Part shown: positions 31,861-35,109 of the stretch, piece after piece
Layout of the letters: every line of letters starts with the position of its first letter
Numbering within the stretch: position 1 is the first letter of the stretch
Assembly (NCBI GenBank): GCA_010093995.1
Contig: ML992511.1
Span: 109,917-173,916 of the forward strand
DNA: 64,000 nucleotides
Reading direction: 5' to 3'
Origin: Elsinoe ampelina
Lineage: Eukaryota
Made by a program: the position numbers and the translations under genes
Notes under the pieces: model-generated
Databases searched by the model: none
What the model saw: the letters and a program-made list of their open reading frames with translations, nothing else
Told to the model about the DNA's origin: nothing

Positions 31861-32607
31861 ATGACCATCCTCATCACCGGCTCCACCGGCAGCCTCGGCA
31901 GCACCCTCATCGACCTCCTGCGCAGCCCCAGTCACCCCTTCTTCGCAGCAACCAGACGCCCTCCCCCACCCCGGCCCTCGCCTCTCACCCGACCGTCCAC
32001 CTCGACTAGTACGACGAAGCCACCTGGACTGCCCTTTTCTCCCCTCTTCACCATCCATCGCATCCATGTTCCTCCTCGCCGTCCCAGCACCACCCCTCAA
32101 GTCCGCAAGTTCGCCACCCTCTGCGCCTTTAAAGGCGTGAAGCGCATGGTCTTCATGGCCGGTGCATCAGCCGTCAAGCGGCAAGGGATATGGGCTCAGT
32201 TAGATTAGCTGAGGGAGTAGCATGGGATTGCGTACTCGTTGGTGAGTCCGTGTCGGATTAACGAGAATCTGTTGACGGAAAGGTAGGTGGCAGAGATCAA
32301 GCAGGGGGTGATCAGGAATGGGTTGGGAGGTGGCCGGGGGTATGTGCTGACCGACGTAGATTGCGAAGACATTCACGAGGGTGCTGGGAGGAAGGCGGAG
32401 CATTTCCATCTGAGCATGGAGGAGAGTGAAGTATCTGAAGGGGCTTGGGTATCCAGAGAATCTGCACAGCTTGTGGCTCGGATAGAAGCGTGTAGTGCGG
32501 CAGGCAAGCTTGAGCAGGTCTCGTACGAAGATATCGAGGAGAGGATTGGGAGACCTATGGTGAGATTCGAGGACTGGGTTGAGGAGCACAAAGGGATCTG
32601 GCGATGA
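31861..32607 (+). pseudogene. NmrA-like / atypical SDR (EasG-like) NAD(P)-binding protein, disrupted
   Basis: Rossmann start MTILITGSTGSLGS, then LD*YDEATW, KGVKRMVFM and a C-terminal GRPMVRFEDWVEEHKGIW. Contains frameshifts and TAG stops at 32007, 32206, 32218 and 32284. Confidence 0.72.
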
Positions 32608-33063: not shown

Positions 33064-35109
33064 TCATATCTCAATCCACCTTCCCATCCACTCCTGCACA
33101 ATCTGCTTCGCCTCATCCACCAACCCCTCCTCCAACAGCAACTGCACCGTCCCCCTGACCGCCGAGTCCAACGCCGAGAAAATCCACGCATGCGTGTAAC
33201 TCGTGTGCTCCCCGATGAAAATCGTCTTGAACTCCGTCTGGTAGTACGCAGGCAGGTACAAATCCTGCTGGCCCGCGTTCGGACTCGCCCACGCACCGGC
33301 CTGATGCTCGTCCGTCTCCTAGCACTGCCTGTCGTAGTTGCCCGTGAACTGCTCCGCGGCGACGGGGCCATGCGCCTCGACGATAGCGCGCTGCACGAGG
33401 GCGACGTGATCTGCCTCGCTGAGAGCGGCGAAGGAGCGGGCGGCGGTGCCGGAGGCGTAGGAGCCGAGGATCACGCCGGGCCCGGACGAGTTGATGGCGT
33501 AGGAAGGGTAGCAGATGTTGCCTAGGCCCGGGATGTCGGTGGAGCCGCATCCGCCGAGGATGGGAGGGGAGAGCTTCTCCCAGAAACGGGTCTGGTAGTG
33601 GAGCGCGACTTTGCACGAGGGGGAGTAGTTCATGGTTGAGATGGCGCGGGAGAGGGCCGAGGAGTAGCGTGGAGTGCGCCATAGGCGGACTTTGGTGAAG
33701 GGGGCGGCGACGATGGCGTAGTCGTACTCTTCGCTCTCGGGCGTTTGTTGGAAAGGGTCATTGCGCCAATTGATGGCGATCTTGCTGGTAGTACTATTGC
33801 TGGTAGTACTCGAGTATGTCAGACCTTCAATTTTGCGCCCGTAGGTGACCCTGTCACGAAGCATGGGTACAAAGGCCCGTGGAAGCATCTCAATGCCTTT
33901 GTCGATGGTTCGCCAGGCAGTGGCAGAAAAGTAGACGCTGTCGTACCAATCGCCCCACTGGTCACCGTTGCCTGTTCCGGCAACAAAATCCGTGACGTTC
34001 GCGCTCTGGTTGAGCTCGTAGCGGACGTATGCTGCCTCGGAGAATGCAAAGAGACCACGAGCGATGGCGTCCTTGTGGGCTTTGTACATGTTCTGGGCAA
34101 TACTGGCTATACGCTCGCGGGTGAGACCAATGAAGGAGCTAACACTACTAGAAGCAGCACTGACGGCTGCAGCATCGGGAGGAGGCTGCGCAGGTACTGA
34201 AAGTGATGGGTTCGCCCTGACCTGAGCAGCACTCGGTATCTGGCCGTTTGGTAATCGCCCTTCTCGAGAATTGGTAGGTGCATTCGCATTACTCTGGATC
34301 CAAGGAATGAACGATACTGCCAGATCCGTGCGATTGCCATTCATTCTATTTAGAGTGTCGGCGAGCTGAAACACCATCTTGTGATCCTGTATCTCAAGTG
34401 TCTCATTGGTGTTGGCGTAGCGTATTGATACTGGGAACCGCATCGGCCCCATCTCCTGATACTGGTAGTCCTCTGGCTTGGAGTTGGCCAGATACTTGGT
34501 GCGGACACGACCTCCTACACGTTGCGATGATTCAGTGATGTGCCAGTTTGTCATACCCACTGAGTCCAGCAGGAGCCCCGTCATCAAGCCAGACATGCCT
34601 CCTCCGATGATGGCAATACGTTTGGCCTTCGCCTCCGAAACGACCGTCGGCGCGTTGGTCTTGTTCTGCATGAATGCGACGCCTTCGAACCATGGTCCTT
34701 CATAGTCGGCGACATCCGCTATGCTTTGACGTCTCTGTAGTCGCTTGGCGACCTCTATAGGCTGAGATCTGCCAATCAAGATCGACCCATGGTAGGCATG
34801 TAGGCAGCCGTTGTGTCGCGCATCTTCCGGGACGATCCAGACGAACCGGTCGGGTTTGCTCTCTCGGCGGAAGAAAGTAGTACCAATGTCGTGATGGCGC
34901 TCGTGGGGAGCCCGGATGTCGCAATCGCCGTGGACCAACCGGATCTCTCCCTCGAAATTTGAATCGAAGAAATCCACGTGGATGTTGTGGAGAGAACCAG
35001 CATTGACTTTTGACGGTTGCTTAAATCGTATTCTCTCTGTATCGATTCGTGGAGTCGCCAAAGCACTCTTCAAGATCAAAACTACCAGGGGTAGGGACAG
35101 TGCCTTCAT
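33064..35109 (-). CDS. Secreted flavin amine oxidase / L-amino-acid oxidase-like gene interrupted by a single in-frame TAG at 33319-33321
   Basis: Signal peptide, dibasic KRLQRR, FAD motif IAIIGGGMSG, RVGGRVRT, EMGPMRFP and KVALHYQTRFWE. After the stop the same frame continues ETDEHQAGAWA...IFIGEHTSYTHAWIFSALDSAVRG...WIEI*. Confidence 0.88.

Follow-up and report, generated by a model that had tools for sequence, protein, structure and literature searches.

Previous studies of Fusarium graminearum described 71 premature-stop-correction (PSC) genes, among them PUK1, AMD1, FgRID and FgAMA1 (PMC10776026, PMC11156358, available parts), and in the accessible text of the first of these reports the PSC sites reach a median of 79% editing in perithecia and the functional PSC stops are mostly conserved. 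According to the sections of PMC11087585 at hand, editing in Fusarium requires Ame1, a DUF726 protein in which MV500-501 replaced the ancestral KN, and editing in Pezizomycetes arose independently. Hyphal editing in F. graminearum has a mean under 5.5% and a highest value of 30% in the available portion of PMC11169179. As regards other fungi, a review states, in the part available, that there is no editing in Aspergillus nidulans or Botrytis and that other groups remain to be determined (PMC11156358), the accessible part of a 2026 paper mentions no ascomycetes other than Sordariomycetes and Pezizomycetes (PMC13431901), and an excerpt of a further paper holds a claim of basidiomycete editing (PMC13608869). 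Our literature search returned, judged by titles that all pointed to Fusarium-centred work, no report of A-to-I mRNA editing in Dothideomycetes and no paper on an L-amino acid oxidase in Elsinoe, both weak blanks, with accented genus spelling unsearchable and subscription papers outside the search. A first-pass annotation had proposed that an in-frame TAG in an oxidase gene, if a conserved editable stop, would extend the editing system if the fungus stood outside the Sordariomycetes, which it does, as Elsinoe ampelina is a Dothideomycete. Here we compare this locus with the described systems and argue that the TAG is probably a young nonsense allele.

The window, that is the whole stretch of DNA analysed, comprises 64,000 nucleotides of the E. 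ampelina genome (GCA_010093995.1, contig ML992511.1, positions 109,917 to 173,916). On its minus strand the oxidase frame opens with ATG at 35109, runs through 596 codons to TAG at 33321-33319, stays open behind it for 84 sense codons and closes with TGA at 33066-33064 (Table 1); re-derivation gave the same coordinates as the first-pass annotation. The further claim that the downstream segment completes the oxidase was borne out by the Pfam Amino_oxidase profile (PF01593), which is matched over positions 1-370 only by the genomic 596-aa form (108 bits) and over positions 1-438 of 443 with the stop read through (140.5 bits). A full flavin amine oxidase / fungal LAAO domain together with the N-terminal dinucleotide motif, around which NAD_binding_8 is weakly matched (residues 167-207), was found only with the stop read through. 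Moreover, there are matches to a reconstructed tetrapod LAAO (E 5e-27) and to L-lysine alpha-oxidase (E 4e-25), the orthologues carry the name L-amino-acid oxidase from their sources, and the predicted gene product is an L-amino-acid-oxidase-like flavoprotein. Both GAWA and IFIGEHTSYTHAWIFSALDSAVRG are encoded within the 84-codon tail, whose GEHT...HAWI region presumably serves in FAD and substrate binding as in solved LAAOs. A search across the stop for an in-frame intron having a consensus donor or branch site gave none, so intron skipping of the stop was rejected, and the 119 homologues examined (among the matches listed) align gap-free across the site, in agreement with the earlier statement that frameshift and splice signals are absent there.

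Table 1. Coordinates of the oxidase gene, its in-frame stop and the related features (plain numbers are positions in the window)
Feature	Location	Strand	Remarks
L-amino-acid-oxidase-like flavoprotein CDS, fungal, intronless, 596 codons	33322..35109	-	PF01593; ends with the domain incomplete
Probable signal peptide, ~18 residues, hydrophobic core	35056..35109	-	visual inspection of the translated sequence
GxGxxG-type dinucleotide-binding motif, residues 169-174	34588..34605	-	G169, G170, G171 and G174 invariant (70-sequence alignment)
Premature TAG, codon 597, invariant Trp column	33319..33321	-	variable base 33320; TAG in X1, TGG in X4
84 sense codons past the stop, completing the oxidase domain, undecayed	33067..33318	-	80/84 identical to E. 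fawcettii
GEHT...HAWI segment, residues 633-643	33181..33213	-	aligned to PDB 9rvj and 9run, C-terminal GEHT...HGWI of solved LAAOs
Family-standard stop TGA	33064..33066	-	0/119 homologues (among matches listed) end before query residue 670
Decayed NmrA-like/NAD(P)-binding gene, convergent with the oxidase	31861..32607	+	frameshifts and four TAGs (32007, 32206, 32218, 32284)
Intact paralogous oxidase (L002/L003), two exons	G000:C1:1184467-1186541	+	40-47% identical
Ame1-type DUF726 gene (L033)	G000:C11:580735-581784	-	one of two full DUF726 matches
Giant gene, very long frame	G000:C11:352587-356799	-	in-frame TAGs at 356259 and 354579

The homologue set held 119 proteins, obtained from the 120 listed of 536 matches by dropping the window's own protein, and the best named matches were those of Elsinoe fawcettii (84%) and Sphaceloma murrayae (81%). 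The stop had been placed at a probable Trp, and indeed the codon-597 column holds Trp in 119/119 homologues (among the matches listed), none of which ends early. The suggestion of a conserved editable stop found no such agreement: TAG is absent and Trp present in E. fawcettii, S. murrayae and a 78%-identical relative (P0005), and metagenome DNA, scanned as well since protein collections may hide truncated forms, gave 0 matches to the TAG form of the motif and 28 loci with the TAG-or-TGG form, 28/28 of them TGG. Among 91 short homologous fragments (30-373 aa, region 540-681) the best was not above 88% identity, and therefore none comes from the same species. Identity to E. fawcettii is 80/84 in the tail and 388/432 over residues 160-596, and 0/53 near-invariant tail columns are altered. 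The intact tail is not a matter of chance, because it completes the PF01593 match and keeps that identity to E. fawcettii; a young null and an edited gene would both be expected to show it, and it does not separate them. One DUF726 protein of the genome is 100% identical to a protein carrying the name E. ampelina. The nearest named relative is E. batatas, whose DUF726 protein is 95% identical (97% over the searched region), and no E. batatas orthologue of the oxidase is among the 120 of 536 matches listed; a search of the literature on the E. batatas genome gave nothing useful (a weak blank). The cluster of the truncated 596-residue protein contains a second member, which may share the stop. 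Taking the length of this member from the cluster representative was rejected because the clustering is too loose, as two DUF726 proteins 95% identical fall in separate clusters.

Sequencing runs were compared at the locus for X1, X3, X4 and X5 of 11 listed runs, none of which is on record as RNA, a fact that says nothing about expression. One X1 contig spans the whole 2,501-base stretch at a depth of 229 and reads TAG without any variant at 33320; X1 is possibly the run behind the sequence of the window and hence not independent, and contigs drop rare variants. X2, from the sample of X1, has 0.99 of its sampled words in common. In X4, which belongs to another sample and study, is labelled organism B unlike the source runs and has no kind on record, a contig of 416 bases (33081-33496, depth 6.1) differs from the window only by T>C at 33320, giving TGG on the coding strand, with the variable base 177 letters from the contig end and no TAG contig beside it. 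Three further X4 pieces (92, 70 and 247 bases) match the window exactly, for which reason X4 is taken as the same species, and the total is 1 difference in 825 aligned bases. These short pieces, confined to the coding region, look like RNA from a mixed sample, and X4 represents either the intact allele of another isolate or highly edited RNA. The first-pass annotation had predicted T>C at 33320 in RNA; the change itself is there in X4, but since X4 is unrecorded both as RNA and as the same isolate, it fits editing and equally the opposing case in which other strains carry TGG, and the A of X1 and the G of X4 come from different samples. X3 and X5, guessed to be RNA, have contigs that leave 33320 uncovered, and such holes prove nothing. 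In 1,865 aligned bases X3 shows one difference, C>T at 35014 (synonymous at Pro32, depth 16.9, 31 letters from the contig end), a change that A-to-I cannot make and which is either an error or a difference between isolates. A GC-rich gap (33319-33534) is flanked by two X3 contigs that terminate in adapter letters, one of them stopping exactly at 33319, one base short of 33320; the break could reflect a coverage drop or a mixed site. X9-X11 (organism C) share 0.05, and organism C is probably a sister species.

Besides the observed change, 66 other single transitions would create a stop in the oxidase gene, 14 of which are Trp-to-TAG, and therefore no special cause has to be invoked for the Trp-to-TAG pattern. 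On the plus strand the observed change is a CpA-to-TpA one. RIP damage of the gene was not seen (composite index -0.53; 32/32 2-kb windows negative), RIP-like blocks occur elsewhere in the genome (60/400 windows), and RIP leakage was rejected because the window has no RIP signal and the nearest block, on the downstream side examined, lies about 130 kb away. In G000:C3:600001-800000, where GC is near 30%, 41/100 2-kb windows have a positive composite RIP index, and judged from this region RIP was strongly active in the genome's past. A changed genetic code was also rejected, since TAG ends 34/97 long ORFs in 864 kb. A survey of 864 kb for stops with at least 100 open codons before and at least 60 after gave 455 sites, 32 of which passed the coding filter (14 TAG, 13 TGA, 5 TAA); 20 sites were read by eye and 12 TGA/TAA sites with intron candidates were set aside. 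The only survivors, both on one contig, were the oxidase site and the giant gene, which has 559 open codons between its TAGs and 663 after them, and no further case occurred in the blind-chosen 600 kb, a sample too small to test for a system in which about two genes of this sort would occur per Mb.

The neighbouring gene lies 457 bases beyond the oxidase end. Where its four TAGs stand, an intact 282-residue relative (P0333) has Trp, Gln, Glu and Tyr, the one at Trp (32007) being aligned by eye across frames, and a 115-aa fragment of the neighbour is present in a protein collection (P0334). Since editing cannot repair the frameshifts of this neighbour, decay is what produces TAG stops here, those at Trp included. 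The paralogous oxidase, on another contig, has Trp at the codon-597 column and no stop inside its matches. Pieces of the paralogue occur in X1, X3, X4 and X5.

From these observations we consider it very probable that the sequenced isolate or an E. ampelina sub-lineage carries a young nonsense allele, with a probably inactive short protein and a loss that the paralogue may cover. We draw this conclusion because the stop is absent from the relatives read, the Ame1-type protein described below lacks MV, frameshifts and four TAGs have destroyed the gene beside the oxidase, an intact paralogue exists, the samples differ at the locus (C>T at 35014 in X3), and the majority G of X4 suits another isolate, Fusarium hyphal editing being mostly low (PMC11169179, available portion). 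A young null was already named as an alternative in the earlier annotation, and it is this alternative that the absence of the stop from the relatives read, the Ame1-type gene, the paralogue and the TGG of X4 favour. Presumably, one recent G-to-A transition turned the Trp597 codon into TAG, and the mRNA would be translated into a 596-residue protein short of its final 84 residues, among them the conserved C-terminal FAD-domain segment; the short protein is most likely inactive. The tail would be intact because the mutation is too young for decay, the loss would be tolerated, perhaps through compensation by the second intact oxidase gene, and the TGG contig of X4 would be the allele of another isolate. 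Against a young null stand the facts that the sole X4 difference is exactly the A-to-G change predicted by editing, that the E. batatas orthologue is absent among the matches listed while the second cluster member may share the stop, and that the X3 contig end one base short of 33320 is a possible effect of a mixed site.

Restorative A-to-I editing, which we regard as unlikely, would mean that the TAG is fixed in E. ampelina and perhaps its nearest sisters, that a Tad2/Tad3-type deaminase makes UIG, read as Trp, and that production of the oxidase is confined to sexual or infected tissue, with a new origin of mRNA editing in Dothideomycetes. Just as doubtful is the corollary that Elsinoe has its own A-to-I editing independent of Ame1-MV, of which the X4 TGG would be the first direct glimpse as majority-level correction in host-associated tissue. 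In favour of editing, A>G at the stop is the only difference in the 825 X4 bases and the contigs are RNA-like, Trp is invariant and the tail undecayed, the giant gene of the same contig has two in-frame TAGs, and sexual and asexual stages of E. ampelina were reported together in some epidemics (PMC8295512, available part, where two sequenced isolates are listed). On the other hand, the relatives read do not share the stop, whereas most functional PSC stops are conserved (PMC10776026, accessible text), and the guessed-RNA contigs end at or before the site and yield no edited read; a majority of G as in X4 would be unusual outside sexual tissue.

The E. ampelina genome has two full DUF726 matches, and the Ame1-type protein, of the size class of Ame1 orthologues, has KS at Ser-30/-29 and AK at Ser-31/-30, not MV, with Asp at Ser+58 in agreement with the spacing in PMC11087585 (available sections); the register was inferred from the catalytic Ser, without a Fusarium Ame1 sequence as positive control. 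MV at that site occurs in 0/120 listed DUF726 proteins, and an editing-competent Ame1 with MV at the Tad3 interface, as in the Sordariomycete system, was not seen in the Ame1-type gene. Supplementary Data 6 of PMC11087585, as far as available, has one listed Ame1 copy for each of four Myriangiales species; these four rows are grouped together, apart from the other Dothideomycete rows. The MV test does not close every editing route, because the Pezizomycete (Pyronema) system has a separate origin (PMC11087585, sections at hand), a precedent on the side of editing. The stop context UAG-GAG had been held to fit editing, and U(-1), G(+1) and A(+3), with purines at +1 and +3, are present, but this carries no weight because every TAG supplies U(-1) and G(+1) by itself and the two letters that follow belong to the Glu598 codon, invariant in 119/119 homologues (among the matches listed). 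RNA folding in four windows left the A of the stop codon unpaired in every centroid, and the UAG did not fall within a stable hairpin (z 0.41 to 0.78 against shuffles). Among other candidate targets, the four DNA-methylase matches, in which the RID orthologue is expected to be represented, contain no stop (a low-power check), and a kinase search in which 125/193 candidates were scored gave 31 stops in 23/137 matches; for 26 of these, including all 12 TAGs, a permissive rule yields an in-frame intron candidate, while the remaining 5 sit in non-kinase-like text, so that the stops in kinase matches look intronic, again at low power. No stops occurred in 9 scored of 324 MFS candidates, which is uninformative.

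Translational readthrough, in which low-rate passage of the UAG yields a little full-length enzyme, is very unlikely. The tail is intact and in frame as this would need, but known leaky stop contexts have C following the stop, and UAG-GAG is an ordinary context, G coming next in 10 of the 34 long ORFs of the sampled DNA that close with TAG. Besides, the amino acids put in when a UAG is read through are mostly Gln, Tyr or Lys, and the column here holds Trp in 119/119 homologues (among the matches listed). No downstream structure stands above shuffles and the relatives read lack the stop, so that the features of programmed readthrough were not found, and the TGG in X4 is left unexplained. We give a similarly slim chance to a gene dead in the whole species or clade, with the TGG contig as an artefact or a rare revertant: the neighbour is decayed, no E. 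batatas orthologue is among the matches listed and the X4 depth is low, but 0/53 near-invariant tail columns are changed, and an error is unlikely in a contig of depth 6 that carries the ancestral base as far as 177 letters from its end. Lastly, an assembly or sequencing error in the window, which the first-pass annotation had kept as an alternative and which a single base read as TGG in another run (X4) might suggest, is hardly credible in view of the separately assembled X1 contig, which reads TAG at depth 229 without a variant, and of X2 from the same sample, which shares 0.99 of words.

Under the young nonsense allele that we prefer, the locus holds an ordinary loss-of-function allele, and two warnings follow: the public protein model of 596 residues represents an incomplete allele, and a Trp replaced by TAG says little in favour of editing in the E. 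ampelina genome. If editing were true, it would switch on a secreted peroxide-producing oxidase only in host-associated tissue, would be a third origin of fungal restorative editing, and would bring fungal mRNA editing into a class for which the available part of the review leaves the question open (PMC11156358). The oxidase site would then be a cheap place for an editing test, as the sole spot with a TGG contig seen here.

Compared with the secreted ascomycete LAAOs (ncLAAO1 of Neurospora crassa and cgLAAO1 of Colletotrichum; PMC8364938), the Elsinoe gene has the same PF01593 domain, which is also in common with the solved LAAO / L-lysine alpha-oxidase structures, whereas the Elsinoe allele ends 84 residues early. 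With the F. graminearum PSC genes, as described in the accessible parts of PMC10776026 and PMC11156358, it has in common a TAG at the Trp of its relatives, an open frame downstream, U at -1 and purines at +1 and +3; it differs in belonging to Dothideomycetes, in a stop not conserved in the relatives read, in an Ame1-type protein without MV and in the lack of a stable hairpin. Hyphal PSC editing of CHE1 in F. graminearum is alike as a UAG-to-UGG correction outside the sexual stage, but in the available portion of PMC11169179 its level is low and its stop is conserved among Fusarium, whereas X4 has a majority of G and the oxidase stop is absent from the relatives read. An in-frame genomic TAG interrupts a conserved domain at a Trp column, and the oxidase resembles a PSC gene in anatomy, but it is not filed as one, because the Ame1 test failed and the TAG of X1 and the TGG of X4 belong to different samples. 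Isolate-level nonsense alleles are common in fungal pathogens. At this locus the polymorphism is inferred from one low-depth run, and the oxidase is like such alleles in its one transition, its intact flanks, an ancestral allele apparently found in another sample and its paralogue in reserve.
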